IMG/VR virus record: IMGVR_UViG_3300020583_000009
Direction: 5' to 3' (one strand)
From: a virus
DNA length: 35,328 nt
Below, piece by piece: positions 11,612 to 34,305 of this stretch. Below the pieces are notes generated by a model that worked only from the letters and a program-made list of their open reading frames with translations, made no database searches and was not told the DNA's origin. Both the position numbers and the translations under genes were made by a program. How positions within the stretch are numbered: the stretch's first letter is position 1; each line of letters starts with the position of its first letter.

Positions 11612-13426
11612 ATGGCGAGTGAATGCAAAGATTATGACTTTGTGGGTAGCTACGATAATCAGCGTATCAGTACGATTAACGCCGAACGTAGCGTGAATGT
11701 CTTTGAGTACTTAGATACTAATGGCAAACGTCCTAAAGCCATGATTTCGACCTCTGGATTAGTTAATTCAGCCCTAGATTTCTCGCCTGAAACAGGGGGT
11801 TCTAGGGGTACATTTGTATTTAACAATGCTATTTATCAGGTCTTTGGTTCATCATTATTTTTAATTACTGGAACACTAGACTCATTAACAAAGTCATTGC
11901 TTGGTACTTTAGTTACTGCAACGGGCTACGTTGGAATTGATGCGAATCAGTATCAAGTTATCTTCGTGGATGGTGTAGAAGGGTACATATGGGATACAAA
12001 TGCGACTACTTTTGAACCGATTACTGATGTGGGATTTCCAGCAAACCCGATTGATGTCTGTTATTTGGATGGATACTTTTTGGTTGCCGCTGGCGGTACT
12101 AACAACTTTTACTTATCCCTGATTAATCAAGGGATGGTTTGGAGTGGTGGAAGTGCCACTTTTACGGCCAACGCTGCAACCGATATTTTAACACTGAGTA
12201 GCAGCAATGCTAACTTCCAGACGGGCGTACCTGTGACTTTCACGACCACGGGAACATTACCAGCGCCATTAAATACTACAACAACCTATTATGTGATTAT
12301 GGTTGGAACCCCGACAACAAACCCGGGAACAATCAAATTGGCTACAAGTTACGCAAATGCCATAGCTGGTATTGCCATAGACATTACAACGGCTGGCGCA
12401 CCGACTAATACCATAACGGTATCAGGGCAATTGCAGTTCGGAAGTATTACTTCTCACCCGGGAACCATTGTTGCTTGTAGAACACTTCACAGACGAATAT
12501 TTTTATTCTCTCAGTTCTATACAGAGGTTTGGGAAAATGCCGGATTGGGTACGAACCTGCCATTCAGACGCAATAATTCCTTGCTGATGGAAGTAGGAAC
12601 GCCAGCAATTGGAAGTGTGGCCGTGGGATTTGACCGTATGTTCTTTTTAGCGCAAGACCGTGATGGATTGGCTGGCGTGATGGAAGTTAAGGGAACTGAA
12701 TCATTACCTGTAAGCAACAGGGCATTGGATTACCAGTTGGCGCAATACGCTGCTGGCCCGGGTGTATCTGATGCTCGGGGCATATTAATTAAAGAAAATG
12801 GCCTTATATTTTACCGTCTTAATTTTACGGCTGCGAATCATACATTTGTATTAAACGTGTCGATGAGTACTTCTGAGTCTCCTAAATGGCACGAAGAGGA
12901 GGTCATCAATGGCGATAGGCACCCCGCCCAAACTCACGCTTATTTTGCTGGTGTTAATTTCTATGGAGATTATGAGAAGGCTTTATTTTACATCGTAAGC
13001 GATCAGGTCACTACAAATAACGGTGAGCGCATCAGACGTATGAGAATAGGCCGTCAAATGAGTCCAGAAGGTTACAAGCGATTGCGCATTGACCGATGGC
13101 ACCTTGATTTATTACAGGGCGCATTGTCCACGGGTGCACTAGGATTTACTCCTGATCATGGTCTCGACAATATTTTGACGATTCCTTACGCACCTAATGC
13201 TCAACCTACCGTTTATTTGTCTGTATCAAAAGATGGAGGCCAAAGCTATGGTAATAATCTGCACTCGACAATGGGCAAAACAGGTGAGCGAACACATAGA
13301 ACCGTGTGGCGAAAGATTGGAACCACACCAAGAGGCCAAGGGTTCGTTCCTAGGGTCGAATTTTTCAGTGAGATCCCCTTCATCATCTTGGGTGCCGCTT
13401 GGAATTTTGAGATTTTACCGGAGTAA
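11612..13426 (+). CDS. Tail hub / packaged-DNA stabilisation protein, P22 gp10-like
   Basis: 604 aa. C-terminus VYLSVSKDGGQSYGNN...RTVWRKIGTTPRGQGFVPRVEF parallels the P22 gp10 C-terminus LFLSATTDGINYGRE...RVLWKRVGRIRRLIGFKLRV. Confidence 0.7.
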   Translation: MASECKDYDFVGSYDNQRISTINAERSVNVFEYLDTNGKRPKAMISTSGLVNSALDFSPETGGSRGTFVFNNAIYQVFGSSLFLITGTLDSLTKSLLGTLVTATGYVGIDANQYQVIFVDGVEGYIWDTNATTFEPITDVGFPANPIDVCYLDGYFLVAAGGTNNFYLSLINQGMVWSGGSATFTANAATDILTLSSSNANFQTGVPVTFTTTGTLPAPLNTTTTYYVIMVGTPTTNPGTIKLATSYANAIAGIAIDITTAGAPTNTITVSGQLQFGSITSHPGTIVACRTLHRRIFLFSQFYTEVWENAGLGTNLPFRRNNSLLMEVGTPAIGSVAVGFDRMFFLAQDRDGLAGVMEVKGTESLPVSNRALDYQLAQYAAGPGVSDARGILIKENGLIFYRLNFTAANHTFVLNVSMSTSESPKWHEEEVINGDRHPAQTHAYFAGVNFYGDYEKALFYIVSDQVTTNNGERIRRMRIGRQMSPEGYKRLRIDRWHLDLLQGALSTGALGFTPDHGLDNILTIPYAPNAQPTVYLSVSKDGGQSYGNNLHSTMGKTGERTHRTVWRKIGTTPRGQGFVPRVEFFSEIPFIILGAAWNFEILPE

Positions 13427-13430
13427 ATAG

Positions 13431-13730
13431 ATGGCTCGTGACTTTGACTATTTCCCAACCTATGACCCTTTAGTAAGGGATCAGGTTTATTTGAGTAACG
13501 TATGGGGCGATTTTATGGCCACATTCGTTGAATCATTACGTGAATATATGTCATCCGGTGGCATGTTTATCCCACGCCTTACCAAGGCACAAAAGGCTTT
13601 GATACAAACGCCTGTAGAAGGGCAAATGATTTACGTAAGTGACGCCAATTCGCCAACGTTGCCAAGGACGGCTTCATTACAAATATGGCAAGTGGTTGCA
13701 GGTAATGGACAATGGACAACTATTGTTTAA
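13431..13730 (+). CDS. Virion-associated hypothetical protein (99 aa)
   Basis: GGAG RBS. Lies in the tail module between the hub and the ejection-type proteins. Confidence 0.55.
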   Translation: MARDFDYFPTYDPLVRDQVYLSNVWGDFMATFVESLREYMSSGGMFIPRLTKAQKALIQTPVEGQMIYVSDANSPTLPRTASLQIWQVVAGNGQWTTIV

Positions 13731-13741
13731 CGATTAATTAG

Positions 13742-13755
13742 CACAAGGAATGTGA
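13742..13755 (+). promoter_or_regulatory. CACAAGGAATGTGA motif (copy 1): dyad CACA/TGTG around the SD
   Basis: Identical 14-mer at 17366-17379. Followed by CT-ATGGC. Confidence 0.55.
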
Positions 13756-13757
13756 CT

Positions 13758-14363
13758 ATGGCTTTCGATAGCGGACAGTTTGGAAGTGGCCTTGGTGGGT
13801 TTTTGGGTGGCATGTTTGGCGACTCCGGCAAACCCTATGACAAAGCTATGGAGCAATACCAAAAGTACATGCAAATGGGTCAAGGAGTACAACAACCTTA
13901 CTTAGATGCAGGTAAAGAAGGTCTTGGAAATTATCAGGAATGGCTAAAAGGCCAGAAAGACCCAAGCGGTTTTATTAATAACTTAATGGGTAATTACCAA
14001 GAAAGCCCTTATGCGCATATGCTTCAACAGCAAGCAATGAATGCCGGGAATAACTCAGCGTCCGCTAGTGGTATGATGGGAAGTAGCGCATTAATGCAGC
14101 AACAAATGCAAAACGCTGGTCAAATTGCTTCTGGTGATATGAACTCTTGGCTGCAAAACGTATTGGGAATTAATACGCAATATGGGGAAGGTCAAAAAGA
14201 TTTGAAAAACGGTGGTCAAAACGCGGCTAATTCATTGACCGATATGTACAATCAAATGGGCGGAAAAATGGGTGAAGCAGCCTATGGGAAGGAAGCAGGA
14301 AAGAAAAATGACTTCTGGAACACCATTGGCGGCGGATTAAGTATGCTCGGCAGCTTTTTATAA
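13758..14363 (+). CDS. Ejection/internal virion protein candidate 1
   Basis: 201 aa from ATG 13758. Gly-zipper ends (GSGLGGFLGGMFG; IGGGLSMLGSFL) and a Gln/Met/Asn-rich core. Confidence 0.6.
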   Translation: MAFDSGQFGSGLGGFLGGMFGDSGKPYDKAMEQYQKYMQMGQGVQQPYLDAGKEGLGNYQEWLKGQKDPSGFINNLMGNYQESPYAHMLQQQAMNAGNNSASASGMMGSSALMQQQMQNAGQIASGDMNSWLQNVLGINTQYGEGQKDLKNGGQNAANSLTDMYNQMGGKMGEAAYGKEAGKKNDFWNTIGGGLSMLGSFL

Positions 14364-14372
14364 GGATATAAA

Positions 14373-15722
14373 ATGGCACTTCCATTACCAAGAGTTGTTC
14401 CCGATACTGGCCCCGGTGGTGGTTTGGTCACTGCTATGGGTGGGATTAACGCCTTACATAATGCAATGATTGAGAAGAAGATTAACCAAATCAAAGCTCA
14501 ATACATGCCTTTAACCTCACAAGCGGAAGCAGCGAGTAAGCTTGCCTATGCAAATTTGATGGGGCCACAATTCCTATCGAAACTTTTAGGCAATGAAGGT
14601 GCCTTGGCGAACATGTCAGAAGACCAGAAAAAACAAATCCTAGGATTGGTCTCTCGGGCAGGTGTTAATAATTCTGGAAACCCTTTAGCACAGATGCCAC
14701 AAGCTCAAGCACCACAACATACAGGTGTTGGCCAACCTTCGACCAATAACTTTGCTGGCTACTTAAAGAATGCCCTTAAAGGTTTTCTTGGACAAGGCCA
14801 AAGCCAAGGGCAAGGAAACAATCCATTTGCGCAAGCGGCTCAAGCAATGCCACAAATGCCTCAACAGCAACAAATGCCCCAAGGACAGCCACAAGCTCCT
14901 GAACAGCCAATGGGTAATCCAGCAATGAATGCTGTTCCTGGAAAAAGGCCAAAAGGTGGTGTCACTGTTGAAGGTCAACAATGGTATGACAAGAATGGCA
15001 ATCCTGTTTATGAGGAAGATGTTCAAACGCCTAATGAAGATGTTCAGATTGAAGAAACTGAACCCACATGGGCTGAGAAAACAGGCCGATTTAAAGGCGA
15101 AGAAAAGCAAGGCGAAGAGGCCGGAAAATATCGTGCCAAGGCGCAACAAGAGATTGGCGACAGTCAACTTGGCTTAAGTCATTCAGGTGCCGTATTGGGT
15201 CGTATGACTGATATTATTAAAAATCCTGAGTTTCAAGAAATGCGCAATAAGATTCCTTTCTTCCAAGATAAGCAATTAAATTATTTGATGAAGACCGGAA
15301 CCCCTGCGCAAAAGAAACTTATTGGTGACTTTTTATCGACTTCTGAAAGTTTTATTGCATCAACTGTCCAAGGGTTCAGTGGTAAGCCGTTGGTGCGTGA
15401 GTTTGACTTAGCGCAACGTCAAAAGATTAGCCCAAGCGATCCAATTCATGTCGCCGAAGGTAAACTAAAATCAGCTATTGCACTTCATGACATTGCAGAA
15501 AAGAAGAACAATATTATCTCAGGGTTGCTTGATAAAGGCGTCAATCTATCTGATGCTGTTAAGCAAGCAAACAAAATGGTCGATGTAAGTGCTATTGAGA
15601 AGCGAACTGATGAATTATTGCGTGATAAACCTACGGAAGAAGACATCAAGTATATGGCTGAAAAATACAAAACATCACCTGCGGAAATCAGGAAGAAATT
15701 AAAAGCGCAAGGAGTACTGTAA
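14373..15722 (+). CDS. Ejection/internal virion protein candidate 2
   Basis: 449 aa. Gly-rich N-terminus and a central Gln/Pro/Met low-complexity tract (QMPQQQQMPQGQPQAPEQP). Confidence 0.6.
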   Translation: MALPLPRVVPDTGPGGGLVTAMGGINALHNAMIEKKINQIKAQYMPLTSQAEAASKLAYANLMGPQFLSKLLGNEGALANMSEDQKKQILGLVSRAGVNNSGNPLAQMPQAQAPQHTGVGQPSTNNFAGYLKNALKGFLGQGQSQGQGNNPFAQAAQAMPQMPQQQQMPQGQPQAPEQPMGNPAMNAVPGKRPKGGVTVEGQQWYDKNGNPVYEEDVQTPNEDVQIEETEPTWAEKTGRFKGEEKQGEEAGKYRAKAQQEIGDSQLGLSHSGAVLGRMTDIIKNPEFQEMRNKIPFFQDKQLNYLMKTGTPAQKKLIGDFLSTSESFIASTVQGFSGKPLVREFDLAQRQKISPSDPIHVAEGKLKSAIALHDIAEKKNNIISGLLDKGVNLSDAVKQANKMVDVSAIEKRTDELLRDKPTEEDIKYMAEKYKTSPAEIRKKLKAQGVL

Positions 15723-17356
15723 TGGGAACGCCACGCGATTTTTTAGAAGGTAGTTACAATCCTGCAAAGCAAACTTACCAACCCCGAGACTTCTTAGAAA
15801 TGGAAGAACCGGAAGAAAGTATTGGTCAAGCAGCAAAGTATGCACCTTTCAGGGTTGGTGAGGATTTATTGAATGCCGGAAAGGGTGCGCTTGAAAGTGC
15901 ACCTGAGTATTGGGAAAAGGCAAAGACGGAAGTTCCAGCCTTTTTAAACCCAATTAATGGATTGAGACATCCGATCACACGCAGTAAAAACGTGATTGCA
16001 GGTCTTGCAGAGCTTGGGCATAACACGCTTAATGCACCTCATGGCATAGCTAACTACTTAGAGAAGCGTCTTAACCTATTACCTAAAGGATGGGCGGATA
16101 AAATTCCTTATCAAGATGACATATCCGGCGCATTAGACCAATTCACGGGCAAAGAAATGAACCCCGGAGATGCATTGACGAGAGGATTGGTAAGAAATGC
16201 TACAAATATTATTCCTGCTGGAAAGGTAGCTGGAGCTTTAAATCCTTTAAATCTTACAGCTAAAAATATTGCCAAAGATGTTTTGAAAACACGTGAAAAA
16301 AATATTGGAGAATATGGAAATCGTTATGAAAACTTGTGGAAAGAATCCGAGGCAGAAGGACTAGGAGATTTATCACATACTAGAGGAAATAATCAAGCAA
16401 ATATTCCTTTTGAAAAATATGAAAGTGGTAATCAATTTGGTGTTTCACATAATGCTGGAAATACAGAATTACCTACTAATAATATAGGATTAATAAAAAA
16501 TGGAAATAATGCCCGAGTTATACACGCTGTTGTTGAAGAAAAGCATCGTGGAAAAGGCATTGGAAAAGCACTTTATAAAGAAGCAATTAATGACGCTCTT
16601 GAAAAAGGATTAGGTTTTGAATCAGATAGCGTTGTATCACATGATGCAATGAAATTATATAAATCTCTGGAAAAAGAAGGGTATAAATTTGAATACAATC
16701 CCCATGTTAAAGAAGTTAATGGAGAATATCTTGGAGAGCCATACAAAAGATTTGAATCTATTGATGAAGAAAGTCCGGTAGTCAAATTAATTTCTAAGCC
16801 AAAACCTAAAAATTTGATTGATATAGATATGGAAACAATCAAAAAATATTCTCCCGGTCGTGGAATTAAAGGATTGGAAGACTTTGAAGCTAATCCCACC
16901 TTGCAAAATGCGCACAATGCAAAAAGTGACCTATTACGTATTAAGCGAGATTTAGATAAACTAACTACATTGCGAACTGCTGAACGCCAACAATTGGGTG
17001 CTGTAAATAATGCAATTGACAGCATTAATAACAATATGTTTAAAGGCCCTGATGGTAAGATACATGAGGGAATGAAGCAAAAATATGGCGAGCTTCAAGA
17101 AGGTTATCGAAACGAAGTGGTTCCTTATAAGAATAAGGCCATCAATGAGTTTATGCGCGGTGAATCTTCTCCTGATGAATTAGTAAATTCATTATCTAAG
17201 AGAGCATTTTATGCAAAGCGTGGTAAATATCATAATGCAATGCGAATGAGAAAATTGGTTAAGAGTCACCCTTATCTAGCAGGAATAGGCACAGGAAGTG
17301 CTTTAGGAGCTGGGGCTTTAGGTTTTTACAATGAGCTTTTTGGTAAGAGCAAATAA
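15722..17356 (+). CDS. Ejection/internal virion protein candidate 3 with embedded GNAT-like acetyltransferase motif
   Basis: 544 aa. ARVIHAVVEEKHRGKGIGKALYKEAINDALEKGLGFESDSVVSHDAMKLYKSLEKEGYKF is a GNAT motif A. C-terminal Gly-zipper YLAGIGTGSALGAGALGFY. Confidence 0.65.
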   Translation: MGTPRDFLEGSYNPAKQTYQPRDFLEMEEPEESIGQAAKYAPFRVGEDLLNAGKGALESAPEYWEKAKTEVPAFLNPINGLRHPITRSKNVIAGLAELGHNTLNAPHGIANYLEKRLNLLPKGWADKIPYQDDISGALDQFTGKEMNPGDALTRGLVRNATNIIPAGKVAGALNPLNLTAKNIAKDVLKTREKNIGEYGNRYENLWKESEAEGLGDLSHTRGNNQANIPFEKYESGNQFGVSHNAGNTELPTNNIGLIKNGNNARVIHAVVEEKHRGKGIGKALYKEAINDALEKGLGFESDSVVSHDAMKLYKSLEKEGYKFEYNPHVKEVNGEYLGEPYKRFESIDEESPVVKLISKPKPKNLIDIDMETIKKYSPGRGIKGLEDFEANPTLQNAHNAKSDLLRIKRDLDKLTTLRTAERQQLGAVNNAIDSINNNMFKGPDGKIHEGMKQKYGELQEGYRNEVVPYKNKAINEFMRGESSPDELVNSLSKRAFYAKRGKYHNAMRMRKLVKSHPYLAGIGTGSALGAGALGFYNELFGKSK

Positions 17357-20518: not shown

Positions 20519-22699
20519 ATGCCAGGTATAGAGATTAGTGCCTTACCAGCGGCCACGTCCGCACAAGTAACAGACGTATTCCCAGCGGATCAATTACCCG
20601 GCCCTGTGACGCGCAAAATAACTATTCAGCAAGTCCTCGACTTATTGACTGGAACCTTCGTTGAAAGTGTTTCAGGTACGACAAATCGCATCACCTCAAC
20701 AGGTGGCGTAAATCCAATCCTAGATATTGCCGCTAATTATGTGGGGCAAGCATCAATAACTACTCTTGGCACGATTACATCAGGAACTTGGAATGGTACG
20801 ATTATTAGCCCAGCTTATGGTGGAACAGGTGTAAATAATGGAGCTAACACATTAACTTTAGCCGGTAGTTTAACAACCGTTGGAGCATTTCCAGCAACGT
20901 TTAATTTTACAGCAAGTACTAATGTTACTTTTCCTACATCTGGAACCTTAGCAACTACCGCAATGATTCCAACCGTTACACCTTCCCCATTAACGGCCAC
21001 GCCAGACACAAACGTAACTATAACACTCGGTGGTACGCCAGCAACCGCGTTACTTCAAGCTACTTCTATCACTCTTGGATGGACTGGAACATTAAGTCCA
21101 GTACGAGGAGGAACCGGGGTAAATAATGGAACAAACACCCTTACGTTAGCTGGCAACTTATCAACCGTTGGAGCATTTTCTGCGGTTTTTAATTTCACCG
21201 CTGCAACAAACGTAACTTTCCCTACAAGCGGAACATTGGCTACAACTGCAACGGCATCGGGAATAGTAAGTTCAGGATTGATAAATCAGTTGGCTTGGTA
21301 TGCAGCTAACGGAACAACAGTTTCAGGATTGGCAACCGCTGCATCGGGTGTTTTGGTTACATCGGCTGGTTCAGTTCCAAGCATCAGTACTACATTGCCA
21401 TCTGGACTTTCTGCTACTAATATTAATTTGACTACTCCCAATTTAGTGGTCAACCCCTCTTATACCGTTACAGGTGCCACAATAAACGGTGTGGTTGCTC
21501 CTATAAATTGGGAATTATTTACTTTCTGGCAAGGCGCAGGATATTATAATTCTACTTTTAATTCTTCGATGCTTATTGCGGATTTTAATATTTTTAATGG
21601 CTCAGAACCACTTTTAGATACTTTAAACTTAGGTGGTATTCAAACTCTTTTACAAACTCCAATTACAGGAGGATTTATAAGTGGTACTTTCACAAATTTA
21701 ACTTCTTTGTCTGCTCCCTCATTAATAAATATTAATATGGCTTGGGCACCCACAATGGCGGCGTTAACAAGTTTAAGTATGCCTGCCCTTATTAATATCA
21801 ATGGAAGTTTTGGTGGAACTTATAGTAACGCTGGATTTACAAGTTTTAGTTTACCATCATTAGTTAATGTTTCAGGTAATTTAAATGCTACATGTGCGAA
21901 TGTTACTACAGTTAGCATGGCAAATTTAAAATATATAGGAGCTGTATTTACTGTATTTACAATGTTTCCTGCGGCAACTACGTTAAGTTTCCCGGCATTA
22001 GCGTATGTGGGTTCATCATTAGCAATTACAAATACTTGGAATGGAACATCAATAAGTTTTCCTTCATTACAATATATGGGTGGAAATTTAGTATTAACTG
22101 CGCCAAATTTAACATCATCTACTTTTACAAACTTGCAATATATGGGAGGAACTACTTTAGTATGGGCGGCCATGACATCAGTGTCCTTTCCAGCTTTAAC
22201 AACAATGATAACTGCTCAAGCATTAAACTGTACTTTTGCGGCGGCTACTTCTGTAAGTTTTCCACTTTTAGCTAGTGCGGGACAAATTTTATTAAATACT
22301 GTAAGTGCTAGTAGTATTAATCTTAATTCATTAGCTTCATGTAATTCTTTATCTTTAACCGTTGGAAGTGCTTTAACTTCATTTAGTTTACCTGCATTAC
22401 AAAATATTAATAGTGGCTCGTTTGGTTGTACGACTGCTACAGGACTAACTACATTTTCATTTAATAGTGGGTTATTAAAAATTGCAGGTAATGTTACGTT
22501 AACAAATGCGGCATTAACTCAAGCTAGTGTCGATGGTATTTTAGTTTCTTTAGCTAATTTAAATGGTTCTGGAGGTACAACCGCATGGAGTTCTTTAACT
22601 GTAAACTTAAGTGGTGGAACTTCTGCGACACCAAGTTCCACAGGACTAGCGGCAAAAGCTACTTTAGTCGCGCGTTCTTGTACGGTAACAACAAATTAG
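20519..22699 (+). CDS. Distal tail fibre / receptor-binding protein with duplicated GGTGVNNG domains and an LRR-like C-terminal solenoid
   Basis: 726 aa. Two ~48-aa homologous segments. The C-terminal ~400 aa shows a ~22-24-aa periodicity (L.S.SFPAL..I.G...). Confidence 0.8.
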   Translation: MPGIEISALPAATSAQVTDVFPADQLPGPVTRKITIQQVLDLLTGTFVESVSGTTNRITSTGGVNPILDIAANYVGQASITTLGTITSGTWNGTIISPAYGGTGVNNGANTLTLAGSLTTVGAFPATFNFTASTNVTFPTSGTLATTAMIPTVTPSPLTATPDTNVTITLGGTPATALLQATSITLGWTGTLSPVRGGTGVNNGTNTLTLAGNLSTVGAFSAVFNFTAATNVTFPTSGTLATTATASGIVSSGLINQLAWYAANGTTVSGLATAASGVLVTSAGSVPSISTTLPSGLSATNINLTTPNLVVNPSYTVTGATINGVVAPINWELFTFWQGAGYYNSTFNSSMLIADFNIFNGSEPLLDTLNLGGIQTLLQTPITGGFISGTFTNLTSLSAPSLININMAWAPTMAALTSLSMPALININGSFGGTYSNAGFTSFSLPSLVNVSGNLNATCANVTTVSMANLKYIGAVFTVFTMFPAATTLSFPALAYVGSSLAITNTWNGTSISFPSLQYMGGNLVLTAPNLTSSTFTNLQYMGGTTLVWAAMTSVSFPALTTMITAQALNCTFAAATSVSFPLLASAGQILLNTVSASSINLNSLASCNSLSLTVGSALTSFSLPALQNINSGSFGCTTATGLTTFSFNSGLLKIAGNVTLTNAALTQASVDGILVSLANLNGSGGTTAWSSLTVNLSGGTSATPSSTGLAAKATLVARSCTVTTN
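20819..21250 (+). repeat. Diverged intragenic duplication (20819-20962 and 21107-21250)
   Basis: GGTGVNNGANTLTLAGSLTTVGAFPATFNFTASTNVTFPTSGTLATTA versus GGTGVNNGTNTLTLAGNLSTVGAFSAVFNFTAATNVTFPTSGTLATTA. Roughly three quarters nt identity by eye. Confidence 0.85.
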
Positions 22700-22946: not shown

Positions 22947-23165
22947 ATGCAGTATGATTCAAATCAATTATCGCAAGAACTTGCAGCATTACATCAAAAC
23001 AAAGAAGTTGCATTTCAGCAATATCATAAAATTTGCGGCGCAATTGAAATGGTGGAAGCCATGCAAAAGCGTGCGTTAGAAACAGAAAAAGAATCCGAAT
23101 CCAAACTTTCAGACGAAGAAAGTAGCGAGTTGGAACCTGTTCCTGAACAGAGAGAAGCCGCTTAA
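22947..23165 (+). CDS. Hypothetical acidic coiled-coil protein (72 aa)
   Basis: AAGGAGAAG RBS. Last + strand late ORF. Its stop overlaps the stop of the convergent WGR gene. Confidence 0.6.
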   Translation: MQYDSNQLSQELAALHQNKEVAFQQYHKICGAIEMVEAMQKRALETEKESESKLSDEESSELEPVPEQREAA

Positions 23166-23395
23166 TTCATTAAGGGCGCAATCAGTTCATAGCCCCGACT
23201 CTTGCGCCTCTTCATCATTTGCTCAATGGTTTTTTTCGCTTCTTCTTCGGAGCATAAGAAAATATTCTTCTTGCCACCACGATTTGAATTACAGCTACCC
23301 CAACTGTAATCAAGCCTAATCCTATTATCATCTTCCTGCACGGCAATCTTATAAAATCTGTCTTTCGCTCTATTGAGCCATTGGTAAATCAGCAT
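23162..23395 (-). CDS. Stand-alone WGR-domain protein
   Basis: 77 aa. RFYKIAVQ...RLDYSWGSCNSNRGGKKNIFLCSEEEAKKTIEQMMKRRKSRGY fits the short bacterial WGR pattern (FY.i.v...WGRiG..G....f.s.eeA......K..rGY). Confidence 0.65.
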   Translation of the reverse strand: MLIYQWLNRAKDRFYKIAVQEDDNRIRLDYSWGSCNSNRGGKKNIFLCSEEEAKKTIEQMMKRRKSRGYELIAPLMN

Positions 23396-31056: not shown

Positions 31057-31299
31057 TTATCCCTCTCCACTTTCTAAGCAATCGATGTGTCCTATGGCTG
31101 CAAACTCAGCTTCCTGTGCTGTATCAAAGTACTCGTCTGCTTCTCTTATGATTGGGCAACCTAACCAGAAATGTTGCTCCCCACCCTTATCAAGTATCTT
31201 GTAGTAGTAATACTTTGTGTCCGGGTAGTCATCGTCTGGATATGCCCAAATCTCGTAATCGTAGTAGCTGTATCGGTCTTCCCGTACTAGCGTCTCCAT
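31057..31299 (-). CDS. Hypothetical Tyr/Asp-rich protein (80 aa)
   Basis: GGTGATG RBS. Contains YSYYDYEIWAYPDDDYPDTKYYYY. Confidence 0.6.
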   Translation of the reverse strand: METLVREDRYSYYDYEIWAYPDDDYPDTKYYYYKILDKGGEQHFWLGCPIIREADEYFDTAQEAEFAAIGHIDCLESGEG

Positions 31300-31808
31300 A
31301 CGACATCACCATGATCCATGTCTTGCTCTGATCGATAACCCGCTTCATGCATTTCATTGCAATAGTAATCTTGGCACGCGGTATCAATCAGTTCTTGCAA
31401 GGTTTTGTGGTAGTATTTGAGTACGTTTACAGTCGTAACTTGTGCGAATTTGGCACGTGTTTTGGGGTTAGAATCTTTGAACATGGCAAGCATTGCGCAA
31501 AGAAAATCGCTATTTAAAGTCTGATCTTCTCCATAGCAAGCCCACTCTATTTCACGATCAATTGACTCTATGTATAGTCTGGCAAGCTCAAGCTGGCAGG
31601 GTGAGGAAAGTTTATCAAGGTCAAGCTCGTAGTTATCGCCTATGTGTTTACCATAGCTATAAACTAGCTCTTGAAGGTAATCATTTAGATTACGTTGATG
31701 GTCTGAAATTTTCGTTACTCCTGTAACTAGCCCCTTGAAACCAAACGGGTCATCATTCCATGATGTTTGCTTTTGCGTGTTAAAATACGCTAAACTTAAT
31801 GCGTTCAT
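31287..31808 (-). CDS. Hypothetical protein (173 aa)
   Basis: ATG 31808 lies 6 nt after AAGGTG. The track start 31817 is GTG inside that SD. Confidence 0.6.
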   Translation of the reverse strand: MNALSLAYFNTQKQTSWNDDPFGFKGLVTGVTKISDHQRNLNDYLQELVYSYGKHIGDNYELDLDKLSSPCQLELARLYIESIDREIEWACYGEDQTLNSDFLCAMLAMFKDSNPKTRAKFAQVTTVNVLKYYHKTLQELIDTACQDYYCNEMHEAGYRSEQDMDHGDVVWRR

Positions 31809-31883
31809 ATAATTCACCTTTGAAACGTAGTTACTTGAACACCGGGGTTGTAGGGTCGTAACCTATAACCTCAGACTTATTTA

Positions 31884-32057
31884 CTACTCATTGAAACTTC
31901 TTTTTACCGACTCCGTTGCTGCTGTAAACCCTTTTAAATACCACTCAAATACTAAGTCATTCACTTTATGCTTTAACATTTCTGGGCTGTGAAGATTAAA
32001 TATATGATCTATTTGCTCTTTAATTTTGTTATCTATTTTAACCGCGTCATTTTCCAT
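31884..32057 (-). CDS. Hypothetical protein (57 aa)
   Basis: ATG 32057. The track start 32066 is GTG too close to AAGGAAA. Confidence 0.5.
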   Translation of the reverse strand: MENDAVKIDNKIKEQIDHIFNLHSPEMLKHKVNDLVFEWYLKGFTAATESVKRSFNE

Positions 32058-32084
32058 TGTAAACACATTTCCTTAAATAATTAT

Positions 32085-32276
32085 TTAATTATCGTCATCA
32101 TTATTATCGATGGAAGAATTCTTTTTTTCCAACTTCTTTTTGTAGTCACTTAAACATTTTGTGACCAATGCAGTCATAGAACAGTCTTGTTTAATAGCAG
32201 TCTGCTTTAAAAATATTAACAAATCCTTGTCTATTCTCATGTTGAAGGTATTGATACCGTTCGCTAGTTTTGCCAT
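32085..32276 (-). CDS. Ribbon-helix-helix (Arc/CopG-like) regulator, first gene of the leftward operon
   Basis: 63 aa from ATG 32276 (AGAGGA 8 nt upstream). INTFNMRIDKDLLIFLKQTAIKQDCSMTALVTKCL is the beta-strand-helix-helix pattern. Confidence 0.68.
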   Translation of the reverse strand: MAKLANGINTFNMRIDKDLLIFLKQTAIKQDCSMTALVTKCLSDYKKKLEKKNSSIDNNDDDN

Positions 32277-32318
32277 CTTATACATCCTCTTTTTTGTTGT
32301 TAGTTACTGATGTGAGTA

Positions 32319-32347
32319 AATATAGCAATAATCATTTACGTATGCAA
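32319..32347 (-). promoter_or_regulatory. Leftward early promoter candidate TTGCAT-N17-TATATT
   Basis: -35 is the reverse complement of 32342-32347. -10 is the reverse complement of 32319-32324. One arm of the inverted repeat lies in the spacer and -35. Confidence 0.5.
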
Positions 32348-32378
32348 GCACTAAATTAAAAAATGTACGAAAATGATT
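32330..32378. promoter_or_regulatory. 13-bp inverted repeat AATCATTTACGTA / TACGAAAATGATT (operator candidate)
   Basis: Arms at 32330-32342 and 32366-32378. 12/13 complementary, 23-bp spacer. Confidence 0.5.
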
Positions 32379-32507
32379 AAAAGATTATATTGGTATTTAC
32401 ATGGGTATGATTTTTGTATTACGATTACTGAAAATTAGATACACTAGAAGGGTTAGCAGCAATCAACTTCATGTTCCATGCTGCTGGAACTTTTTATAGT
32501 CGCATGA

Positions 32508-33431
32508 TTGTCATCCGCCAAGACCATCAATCGTGCTTTTGAACTACCGGACGCCAATGTTTGGCAAGAAATCGGCACAGTGCGTCCATACACTAAGGGC
32601 AATTATATAATGAGCATCGTTAAAAATACACCCCATTATTTAAAACACTCGCAATTTCCGTTCACCACTGTACTAAATAAGACCATCGAAGCTATAAAAG
32701 ACCCTGCATCTCTTGGTATTTACTTGTATCTCACCTCAAAACCCGATGATTGGGAAATATCCGAAACGAATTTAAAGAACCGATTTGGCAAAGGGCGTGA
32801 CTTTATCCGCGCAAGGCTATCTGATTTAAAGAAGATTGGACTCTTGAAAAGCGTTGCAGTAAAGAACACCCGTGGCCAAGTATGTAGATGGGAAACGATT
32901 TTATACACCGAAGTCCAGAATACGGAAAACAAGGAATGTGGTGTACATAACCAGATACCTGAAAACCCACCTTCTGGAGAAACCAGTGATCAGGCAGATC
33001 CACCTACAACAAATAAAGGATCTTTACAAAAGAAAGATATTAACAATCACACACACAGCGTGGAACACGATTTATTTTTGGAGTCTGAACAACAAAGAAA
33101 AGCCCTGATGCTCAGAGCTAAGACCGTGAAGCATGAGAAATGCCACGAACTGTACGAACAATTACCCATAGACGTTAAAAACGATAAGAGTTTTGAGGAA
33201 ATACACGATGAGTGTGTTACCCATTATGCAACCCAAGCAGAGCCACAAATGGTAAGCCCACAAAGGCTTATGTCTTGGATTAAACGAGACATCAAATACC
33301 ACGCAAGCCAATCACAAGCCCCAAAGCAATACAAAAAGCCTGGCGATTCCTTCAACGAGTTCATGAACCAAAACAAACAACAAGGTACGACCTATGAGCA
33401 ATCAGGTAGCGTATATGACCCACTCCGTTAA
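32508..33431 (+). CDS. Replication initiator, O-like / winged-helix replisome organiser
   Basis: 307 aa (TTG start; alternative ATG 32610). FPFTTVLNKTIEAIKDPASLGIYLYLTSKPDDWEISETNLKNRFGKGRDFIRARLSDLKKIGLL is the typical wHTH initiator N-domain. Confidence 0.72.
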   Translation: MSSAKTINRAFELPDANVWQEIGTVRPYTKGNYIMSIVKNTPHYLKHSQFPFTTVLNKTIEAIKDPASLGIYLYLTSKPDDWEISETNLKNRFGKGRDFIRARLSDLKKIGLLKSVAVKNTRGQVCRWETILYTEVQNTENKECGVHNQIPENPPSGETSDQADPPTTNKGSLQKKDINNHTHSVEHDLFLESEQQRKALMLRAKTVKHEKCHELYEQLPIDVKNDKSFEEIHDECVTHYATQAEPQMVSPQRLMSWIKRDIKYHASQSQAPKQYKKPGDSFNEFMNQNKQQGTTYEQSGSVYDPLR

Positions 33432-34305
33432 TCGGGAAATCATCACACGCCTATTTGCTAAGTTTGCTAATCGTTACGGTAAGATTTGGACGACAAGACT
33501 AGGTGAAGGTGGCGACTGGAACGCGTGCGCTGATGATTGGCTGGAAGAGTTGCAACAATTTGACCTTGGCGTACTACGCGAAGGGGTTAGCGTAGCACTC
33601 GCAACCTGCAAAGAATATCCGCCAACCCTTGGGCAATTGATTGATCTATGCCTGAAAGCAAGCGGTGTTCCTGAACCTTCGCAATTAATCCGCATGATGA
33701 CAGCAAAAGACTTTAGCCATCCCGTGGTAAAGATGGTCTATGACAAGATTGGTTCATGGAAGCTGTCCAATGGTAGCGAGAAAGAGATAGCCCAATTGGT
33801 GCGTGACCAATACGACACGATGGTTAATACCTTCAAGTCTGAGCCTCAACAATGCTGGCAAAAGTTAACAGACTTCAACGCCAAGCCAAAGGAATTGCCA
33901 CCGCCTGATAAGATACCGAACAAAGACGAGATGAAATCGTTTCGTGAATGTATGACTCGGTGCCAAGAGATACTTAGCGAGAAAAAGATAGCCGGAGGCG
34001 GTAAAGCCTACAAAGAATTTGATGCAAACAAAATAAAGCAGGGTCACAAAGAGTTCGATCAGGGTGTGTTTGATGAGTACAAAGCGTACTTGATAGGCAT
34101 TCCAGAAACGGAAACCATGATTTTACCAGCTACGTATTTAATGCAGAGAAATAAGTTTTTAAACATGGCAGAGCAAGCAGAATGGTTAAAGAAGCAAGGC
34201 TACGTACCGCCTAAAGAGCGGGAAGGGTTTGCATCTCCGAAAGGCTCTGATAGAAGTGGCGCAGGTAAACCCGTGAAGGTTTACAAGAATTGGGCGCATG
34301 ACTGA
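33394..34305 (+). CDS. Lambda P-like replication protein (helicase loader candidate)
   Basis: 303 aa. LFAKFANRYGKIW...WLEELQQFDLGVLREGVSVALATCKEYPPTLGQLIDLC parallels lambda P (...PFLPSPGQFVAWC). Follows the O-like gene. Confidence 0.6.
   Translation: MSNQVAYMTHSVNREIITRLFAKFANRYGKIWTTRLGEGGDWNACADDWLEELQQFDLGVLREGVSVALATCKEYPPTLGQLIDLCLKASGVPEPSQLIRMMTAKDFSHPVVKMVYDKIGSWKLSNGSEKEIAQLVRDQYDTMVNTFKSEPQQCWQKLTDFNAKPKELPPPDKIPNKDEMKSFRECMTRCQEILSEKKIAGGGKAYKEFDANKIKQGHKEFDQGVFDEYKAYLIGIPETETMILPATYLMQRNKFLNMAEQAEWLKKQGYVPPKEREGFASPKGSDRSGAGKPVKVYKNWAHD

Follow-up and report, generated by a model that had tools for sequence, protein, structure and literature searches.

The window analysed here, the whole stretch of 35,328 nucleotides (nt) of IMG/VR virus record IMGVR_UViG_3300020583_000009, is a complete ~35.3-kb genome of a P22-like podovirus, in which a GNAT acetyltransferase cassette is inserted into the third of three ejection-slot genes. 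The carrier gene, here called E3 (15722..17356, + strand, 544 amino acids (aa), ATG start), is defined by its open reading frame (ORF) and its position. The cassette is a discrete, recent and foreign insert, and the genome was recovered on 19 contigs from several samples, the exact cassette allele included. We put at roughly 0.57 the probability that this P22-like phage gained by recombination a GNAT cassette which is packaged, ejected and acetylates host targets before phage expression.

Insertion of a foreign cassette into E3

The limits of the insertion are given by a close relative. P0001, a protein of 399 aa, has 93% identity to the window protein and no GNAT block. The contig encoding it (L001) aligns collinearly with the window on both sides of the insertion, at 82% identity over 4 kb as far as 16359 and at 86% from 16817 onward. 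The inserted segment (16360..16816, + strand, 457 nt), identified by this alignment and by its foreign composition, stands where L001 has 22 nt, so that the net gain is 145 codons in frame. In the scaffold model, its junctions (16359/16817) map to the stretch that links helix 180-211 to helix 225-231. The initial annotation, a reading of the letters alone, had described the GNAT motif as grafted, and the comparison with an insert-free orthologue that lacks exactly this block bears the description out.

In 300-nt windows, the GC content is 0.30-0.37 from ~16200 to ~17300, compared with 0.44-0.48 on both flanks, so the AT-rich shift noted earlier survives a windowed calculation. The foreign segment had been placed at 16200-17280, which is too wide: its actual extent is 16360-16816, and the AT-rich sequence 3' of 16816 is that of the Lys/Asn-rich C-terminal part, which has its orthologous counterpart in L001 (86% nt identity) and lies outside the insert. 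With a GC content of 0.309 (z = -2.9), the insert itself ranks among the lowest 0.8% of all windows of 457 nt. GC at third codon positions (GC3) is 0.118 in the module, compared with 0.305 in the N part of E3, 0.270 in the C part and 0.34-0.42 in the upstream structural genes.

The cassette shares 76% nt identity over 305 nt with that of an AT-richer genome, L006, in which the whole carrier gene has a GC3 of 0.14, so the cassette appears native in L006 and foreign in the window genome. The suggestion of horizontal acquisition is upheld by this identity together with the GC3 of the module. As part of the reading given above, and sharing its probability, the cassette would have been acquired by recombination with an AT-richer relative. 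Against L001, dS is 0.780 in the C part (dN 0.050) and 0.296 in the N part (dN 0.022), and this difference (0.78 versus 0.30) suggests a mosaic history of E3 around the cassette, in which the recombination tract may include downstream sequence.

Other origins and contents of the region were rejected. A transposon-like insertion would not fit the junctions, at which neither target-site duplications nor terminal inverted repeats are found. Promoter-like and terminator-like sites occur at shuffle expectation, so an independent gene or regulatory element within the region was discarded, and the sole Rfam match is sub-threshold (23.6 bits versus a gathering score of 37.5). An antisense ORF at 16573-17034 is unsupported and a by-product of composition.

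Only one other stretch of the window is as AT-rich as the cassette. It lies at 31855-32530 (GC <= 0.31, minimum 0.27), in a gap of ~690 nt between the divergent ORFs 31287-31817 (- strand) and 32508-33431 (+ strand), near a lambda P-like replication gene (33394-34305), and may be a regulatory or origin region.

Beyond the window, the homologues of the scaffold form 120 clusters, nearly all of 390-425 aa and without a Pfam domain; about 95% of the clusters carry no insert and about 5% carry one. In P0026, the same cassette is found ~80 residues further downstream, which is a second site, and in the type-B sister scaffolds P0069, P0101 and P0105 it occupies a third. Alleles without an insert exist for type B as well (P0102, P0104, P0110 and P0116). 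Moreover, P0112 contains an unrelated block of ~125 aa exactly at the site that holds the GNAT in P0069, and P0101 and P0112 share a syntenic slot in related ~35-kb genomes.

The P0112 block (L007:4464-5885, aa 202-325) shows a YHGKS...ILT..A.AYG.R motif reminiscent of ART-PolyVal segments. Its assignment to ART-PolyVal is statistically unsupported, since hhalign against ART-PolyVal segments gives a probability of 1%, and the likeness is thus at motif level only. No Pfam match and no homologues of the block were found, and nothing similar turned up in the phage collection or the PDB.

The GNAT module and its family in phage proteins

The minimal GNAT module (16403..16810, + strand; aa 228-363, IPFEKY...KPKPK) was recognised by Pfam, AlphaFold, Foldseek and GC3. 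The initial annotation had read a GNAT acetyl-CoA site in this ORF and suggested profile, structure and fold searches; the ORF (+ strand, 544 aa) and the quoted peptide (aa 264-323) exist as given, and the searches agree on the site. Over aa ~255-316, the Pfam profiles Acetyltransf_1 (26.8 bits; cut-off 20.7), Acetyltransf_7 (27.3; cut-off 27) and Acetyltransf_10 (23.9; cut-off 23.6) are matched at or above their cut-offs, all in the C-terminal half of the profiles only. AlphaFold2, given eight aligned cassettes, returned a confident model (pLDDT 89.8, pTM 0.85). Four N-terminal strands lead into helix 53-67; short strands and helix 80-90 come next, and the chain closes with a strand, an extra hairpin and one more strand. 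This layout contains the GNAT core beta4-alpha3-beta5-alpha4-beta6 on a mixed sheet and an additional C-terminal hairpin. Weak matches to Acetyltransf_CG, YjdJ 5i0c and 1r57 give the module a resemblance to minimal GNATs. In the Foldseek search against the PDB, the top 50 matches are all GNATs (probability 1.00, best E 8.4e-5, TM 0.56), and the best matches among viral models are multidomain proteins of 895 aa and 1290 aa (TM 0.77 for the top one).

An exhaustive profile search identified 704 representative proteins at E <= 1e-3, among which 81 reach E <= 1e-10. The family count is taken from this search; a search by word index with the module alone recovered almost nothing (1 match). Conservation was summarized over 180 domain copies from 152 of the 704 proteins, with mutual identity of at most 50%. 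In these copies, the acetyl-CoA pyrophosphate-binding loop (GNAT motif A) reads [R/Q/K]-G-x-G-x-G, with R in 73% (else Q/K) and the three glycines in 82%, 98% and 87%. The window copy contains R276-G277-K278-G279-I280-G281 (16547..16564, + strand), assigned by motif and conservation, and the loop is invariant in the cassette alignment (A2). The Tyr after the loop is conserved in 91% of copies. A family-specific S-D pair in beta5 is likewise conserved (S 97%, D 87%), and its counterpart S301-D302 (16622..16627, + strand), in a strand predicted by the model, is a candidate catalytic or substrate-binding site. In alpha4, the motif A..[Y/W]..L...G-[Y/F] is conserved, with Y in 66% and W in 29% at the Tyr position; the window copy has A..LY...L...GY with Y313 (16658..16660, + strand), which is presumably where many GNATs have their general-acid Tyr.

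The window copy keeps all of these conserved positions (R276-G281, S301-D302 and Y313), and its comparison with the L006 cassette gives a dN/dS of ~0.25. By this measure the cassette is under purifying selection, and the conservation pattern, as read from the aligned sequences, is that of a functional enzyme family and not of a relic. The model and the fold matches argue for a compact, autonomously folding domain, predicted to be an acetyl-CoA-dependent acetyltransferase.

Many other phages have members of the module family, in proteins that lie inside the virion and are injected into the host. Carriers from marine podoviruses belong to phrog_342 ('internal virion protein with endolysin domain', E 4e-146), phrog_6651 ('internal virion protein') and phrog_684 ('virion structural protein'). 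In a census of 38 larger carriers, 6 fall into internal virion protein (IVP) families, 2 are DarB-like antirestriction proteins and 3 contain ART-PolyVal, and LPD22/23/38, InPase, ddrB-ParB, NUDIX, SLT and lysozyme domains are also found. For example, P0120 combines ART-PolyVal with the module, P0128 contains ART-PolyVal, Fic and the module, P0138 contains NUDIX, ART-PolyVal and three modules, and P0134 contains InPase, LPD38 and the module. Cultured carriers include Shigella phage SFN6B, E. coli phage ZH5, Klebsiella phages KpV48 and myPSH1235 and Xylella phage Cota, with the match located in an internal core protein. The SFN6B protein (gp40, 1420 aa) bears a RefSeq note for the cd04301 N-acyltransferase superfamily and matches Acetyltransf_1 at 29.1 bits. 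It also aligns with the cassette profile in hhalign (96.5%, E 7.5e-10), the family-specific C-terminal extension included, and the module therefore travels in true ejection proteins.

Two of these carriers have further features. In P0120 (813 aa, from a JGI metagenome), copies of the linker KVDDGVLGQ, which may be a processing or cleavage site, lie between ART-PolyVal, a second YHGT-type block, the GNAT and another GNAT-like block. The internal virion protein of Cota (L024:3249-7721, 1490 aa) has an N-terminal SLT transglycosylase domain and, at aa 339-394 and 567-621, weak Pfam matches of GNAT type, its tblastn match to the cassette lies at ~aa 584-668, and it may hold two module copies.

The fold matches also bear on the kind of substrate. 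The PDB matches include the protein acetyltransferases HP0935, RimI (5isv), NatC, Ard1, NAA60 and Nat catalytic subunits, and also, at similar scores, the polyamine acetyltransferases PaiA and SpeG and aminoglycoside acetyltransferases. These similar scores would suit an enzyme that is delivered in the same way and acts on a small molecule. The candidates are polyamines (SpeG/PaiA-like), immune signals derived from nucleotides and, for a translation shut-off of the TacT/AtaT type, aminoacyl-tRNA. In the same direction, the partners of the module include NUDIX and InPase domains, for which an action on nucleotides has been predicted (PMC5512222). We consider a small-molecule substrate unlikely. 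The protein acetyltransferases HP0935, RimI, NatC, Ard1 and NAA60 are prominent among the fold matches, and the top 50 contain no tRNA-acetylating toxin. Iyer et al. 2017 put the GNATs of polyvalent proteins in a RimI-like, protein-modifying clade, so these GNATs are probably protein-modifying (PMC5512222). None of these points is decisive.

The carrier gene and its proposed delivery

The gene order of the window comprises P22_portal, scaffold, P22_CoatProtein, an adaptor-like gene, Phage_stabilise, a PTL_trimer needle-like gene, the three ejection-slot genes (203, 449 and 544 aa) and tail-fibre genes. The P22 gp10-type head-closure or tail-hub protein (11612..13426, + strand) matches PF11134 Phage_stabilise and phrog_578 (E 2.9e-50), and the 99-aa needle-like gene upstream of the ejection genes (13431..13730, + strand) has a weak precomputed match to PF26696 PTL_trimer. 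E1 (13752..14363, + strand, 203 aa), Gly-zipper and Gln/Met-rich in composition, is a homologue of the P22 gp7-type DNA-ejection protein: it matches phrog_598 (E 8.5e-7), the same PHROG that contains P22 gp7 itself (E 2e-95). BLASTP between E1 and P22 gp7 finds no link. E2 (14373..15722, + strand, 449 aa) is by synteny a positional analogue of P22 gp20, with no Pfam or PHROG match and no BLASTP similarity to gp20. Stop and start of E2 and E3 overlap by 1 nt (TAATG, 15720-15724), as at P22 genes 20/16, and E3, the last ejection gene after the needle gene and the gp7 homologue and ahead of the tail fibre, occupies the gp16 slot. Between the needle-like and gp7-like genes (13730-13752) there is no gp14/IVP-A-type gene, in contrast to P22 and T7, and the relatives L001, L006, L007 and L022 are likewise without one.

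Outside the cassette, E3 consists of two scaffold parts. The N-terminal helical part (aa 1-213; 15722..16359, + strand) is collinear with insert-free L001. The C-terminal part (16817..17356, + strand), assigned by orthology with L001 and hydropathy, ends in a Gly-zipper segment (aa 518-536; nt 17273-17329), which contains the highest Kyte-Doolittle window and a GxxxGxxxG motif at 521. The AlphaFold model of the insert-free orthologue is all-helical (pLDDT 75.7). All three ejection-slot proteins had been described as Gln/Met-rich; this holds for Gln in E1 and E2, and not for E3 (Q 2.2%, M 1.8%).

In the reading we favour, the GNAT would be packaged in the capsid as part of an ejection protein, threaded unfolded through the tail at infection and refolded on the cytoplasmic side. 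It would then use host acetyl-CoA to acetylate at least one host target, probably a protein, ahead of any phage gene expression, and this acetylation would blunt defence or reprogramme the cell. The module family appears to reside almost exclusively in virion-internal injected proteins, namely T7 gp16-type, DarB-like and polyvalent proteins (ART, NUDIX, Fic, InPase). For E3, we infer the packaging, the ejection, the catalytic activity, the cellular location and the target. Iyer et al. 2017 predicted that polyvalent-protein GNATs are capsid-packaged and injected, typically next to ART domains (PMC5512222), and delivery with the genome and a role in takeover or anti-immunity would match this published prediction for the GNAT class.

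A bolder extension is possible, and we offer it tentatively because we think it rather doubtful. The third ejection protein could be a polymorphic effector-delivery platform, whose helix junctions would serve as swappable cargo slots (for the GNAT, the P0112 block or nothing), resembling polymorphic toxins. The GNAT would then be the first injected acetyltransferase, which would inactivate a factor of host immunity or translation in the first seconds after entry, ahead of phage expression, and would do the same job in T7-like, phiKMV-like and P22-like podoviruses.

Several observations weigh against delivery of an active enzyme by E3. The alpha1-alpha2 arm, which shapes the acceptor site in canonical GNATs and is typical, not universal, in the superfamily, is absent from the model, with no helix ahead of beta4. 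Of the 'textbook' GNAT first described, the R-x-x-G-x-G loop and the core fold thus stand and the arm does not. The catalytic mechanism is uncertain, since the alpha4 Tyr is Trp in 29% of the family. Acetyl-CoA is cytoplasmic, and the cellular location of ejected E3 is a prediction. Most scaffold relatives are insert-free, so the GNAT domain is dispensable for ejection itself. As for the scaffold, its alignment with P22 gp16 (hhalign, alignment A4) has a probability of 0.6%, its best E in Foldseek against the PDB is only 0.49, the insert-free form matches no PHROG or Pfam family, and tblastn of 50,697 phage records found no cultured relative of the carrier group. The virion and ejection status of E3 therefore rests on gene order and analogy. 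From the label 'ejection-type', the P22-like synteny, the gp7-family E1, the helical scaffold and the presence of the module in T7 gp16-type proteins hold, and similarity to gp16 drops out. IVP-C/D homologues are all-helical and notoriously hard to recognise by sequence (PMC4819975), a remark that the weak recognisability of the E3 scaffold would fit, and we regard E3 as a putative, positionally assigned ejection protein.

The enzyme could also act in the producer cell. The GNAT fold would then be a morphogenetic or chaperone module, as with T7 gp13 and P22 gp14, which HHpred likens to acetyltransferases, or would acetylate the phage's own internal proteins before packaging, leaving the next host untouched. 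Hardies et al. found that T7 IVP-A and a syntenic phiRIO-1-like gene match acetyltransferases, and IVP-A is needed for morphogenesis and not retained in virions (PMC4819975); the window, as described above, has no gp14/IVP-A gene of its own. However, the insert-free sisters L001 and L022 also have no gp14 and evidently assemble without a GNAT, and elsewhere the module is joined to effector domains (ART-PolyVal, NUDIX, Fic, DarB-like) rather than to assembly factors, so we hold a role in assembly to be improbable. The cassette as a displaced IVP-A was rejected: hhalign gives probabilities of 0.09% with T7 gp13 and 0.5% with P22 gp14, and there is no match to PF11090 or PF11039.

It is very unlikely that the cassette is an inert passenger, i.e. 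a recent selfish or structural insert in a permissive loop, catalytically dead or irrelevant in the window phage. Its rarity among scaffold homologues (~5% with any insert) and its position at a helix junction, which is expected to tolerate an insertion, are in keeping with such a passenger, as is its unameliorated composition, from which the acquisition is dated as recent. However, the low dN/dS was obtained between cassettes of different phages, neither the window copy nor the set of 180 copies has lost the acetyl-CoA loop or the family-specific residues, the exact allele is found on 19 contigs, and the module is kept in gp16-type proteins of phages from marine to enterobacterial ones. Equally poor are the prospects of E3 as a late membrane or tail-accessory protein outside the virion, with the GNAT acting only late in the producing cell: the scaffold has no sequence, profile or fold link to characterised ejection proteins and its assignment is positional, but the P22 order gp26-gp7-gp20-gp16 is reproduced in the window, even to the 1-nt overlap, E1 is a gp7 homologue, IVP-C/D homologues are as all-helical and sequence-unrecognisable as the scaffold (PMC4819975), and the same cassette lies inside true gp16-type proteins.

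For the host, there is a single hint. L022, a 195-kb contig that bears the label Legionella anisa (DBHUHQ010000001.1), contains an insert-free scaffold homologue in a P22-like syntenic block (164-185 kb), and a scan of GTDB representative genomes found no copies. Weak Tad2-like genes flank the L022 block.

Two other ORFs of the window were noted. The first (20519-22699, 726 aa, GC3 0.224) has an internal duplication of ~45 aa (GGTGVNNG.NTLTLAG.L.TVGAF.A.FNFTA.TNVTFPTSGTLATT), matches no Pfam or PHROG family and is probably a mosaic receptor-binding tail fibre. The second (23162-23395, - strand, 77 aa), in the early/replication region, has a weak precomputed match to the WGR domain (PF05406).

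Comparison with known systems

GNATs in virion-delivered phage proteins were already predicted in 2017 (PMC5512222) and are annotated incidentally in at least one RefSeq internal core protein. In the literature searched, there is no dedicated study or experimental test of GNAT or acetyltransferase domains in ejection, internal-core or ejectosome proteins, and no experimental demonstration of acetyl transfer by an injected phage protein. What is new here is the P22-type carrier family, the clear pair of insert-bearing and insert-free proteins, the three insertion sites and the alternative cassette at a shared site. A clean natural experiment is offered by phages that are almost identical, some with the cassette and some lacking it, by the three sites in related carriers and by the one site with an alternative block. 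The module is also present in Drulisvirus phages that have been cultured (of Shigella, E. coli and Klebsiella), which makes the prediction experimentally approachable.

Head-packaged enzymes that enter with the DNA are an established principle, which the proposed GNAT would share with the virion-delivered T4 Alt ADP-ribosyltransferase, P1 DarB, the N4 virion RNA polymerase (vRNAP) and the transglycosylase domain of T7 gp16. An enzyme that enters with the DNA acts before phage transcription, which makes such enzymes prime candidates for counter-defence and host takeover. The delivered activities that have been proven are ADP-ribosylation (T4 Alt), antirestriction (P1 DarB) and transcription (N4 vRNAP), whereas acetylation by a delivered phage enzyme has so far only been predicted. 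The GNAT thus differs from T4 Alt, DarB and vRNAP in its chemistry, acetyl transfer, and DarB-like proteins are themselves among the carriers of the module.

The closest described class is that of the polyvalent-protein GNATs, reported beside ART domains in (pro)phages of gammaproteobacteria (Iyer, Burroughs, Anand, de Souza, Aravind 2017, J Bacteriol 199:e00245-17; PMC5512222). Modules homologous to the cassette occur with ART-PolyVal in one polypeptide (P0120, P0128 and P0138) and also with LPD22/23/38, InPase, NUDIX and ddrB-ParB, a likeness drawn from domain company and description and not from the sequence of the exemplar BAR32501.1. Unlike polyvalent proteins, E3 has the GNAT as its sole recognisable enzymatic domain, located mid-protein in a small (~400 aa) helical scaffold, and its family shows polymorphism in both the presence and the position of the GNAT.

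In T7 gp16-type IVP-D proteins, the internal core proteins of Autographiviridae (phrog_342), the same GNAT module lies in an ejected protein, for example beside SLT in Cota. However, these carriers are of another family and 1270-1490 aa long, with the module at a conserved position (~aa 310-460), where it looks long-resident, its composition matching that of the gene, whereas the window copy is a recent foreign insert. T7 gp13 (IVP-A) and P22 gp14 (PMC4819975) also tie an acetyltransferase-like fold to the internal-virion-protein operon of podoviruses, but these are small, independent genes that open the operon, their products do not stay in the virion, and neither shows detectable homology to the cassette. 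Finally, P22 gp7/gp20/gp16 resemble the window proteins in their gene order after gp10-like and needle-like genes, in the 1-nt overlap and in their Gly-zipper hydrophobic segments, and differ in that gp16 has no GNAT domain and that P22 has gp14, which the window does not.

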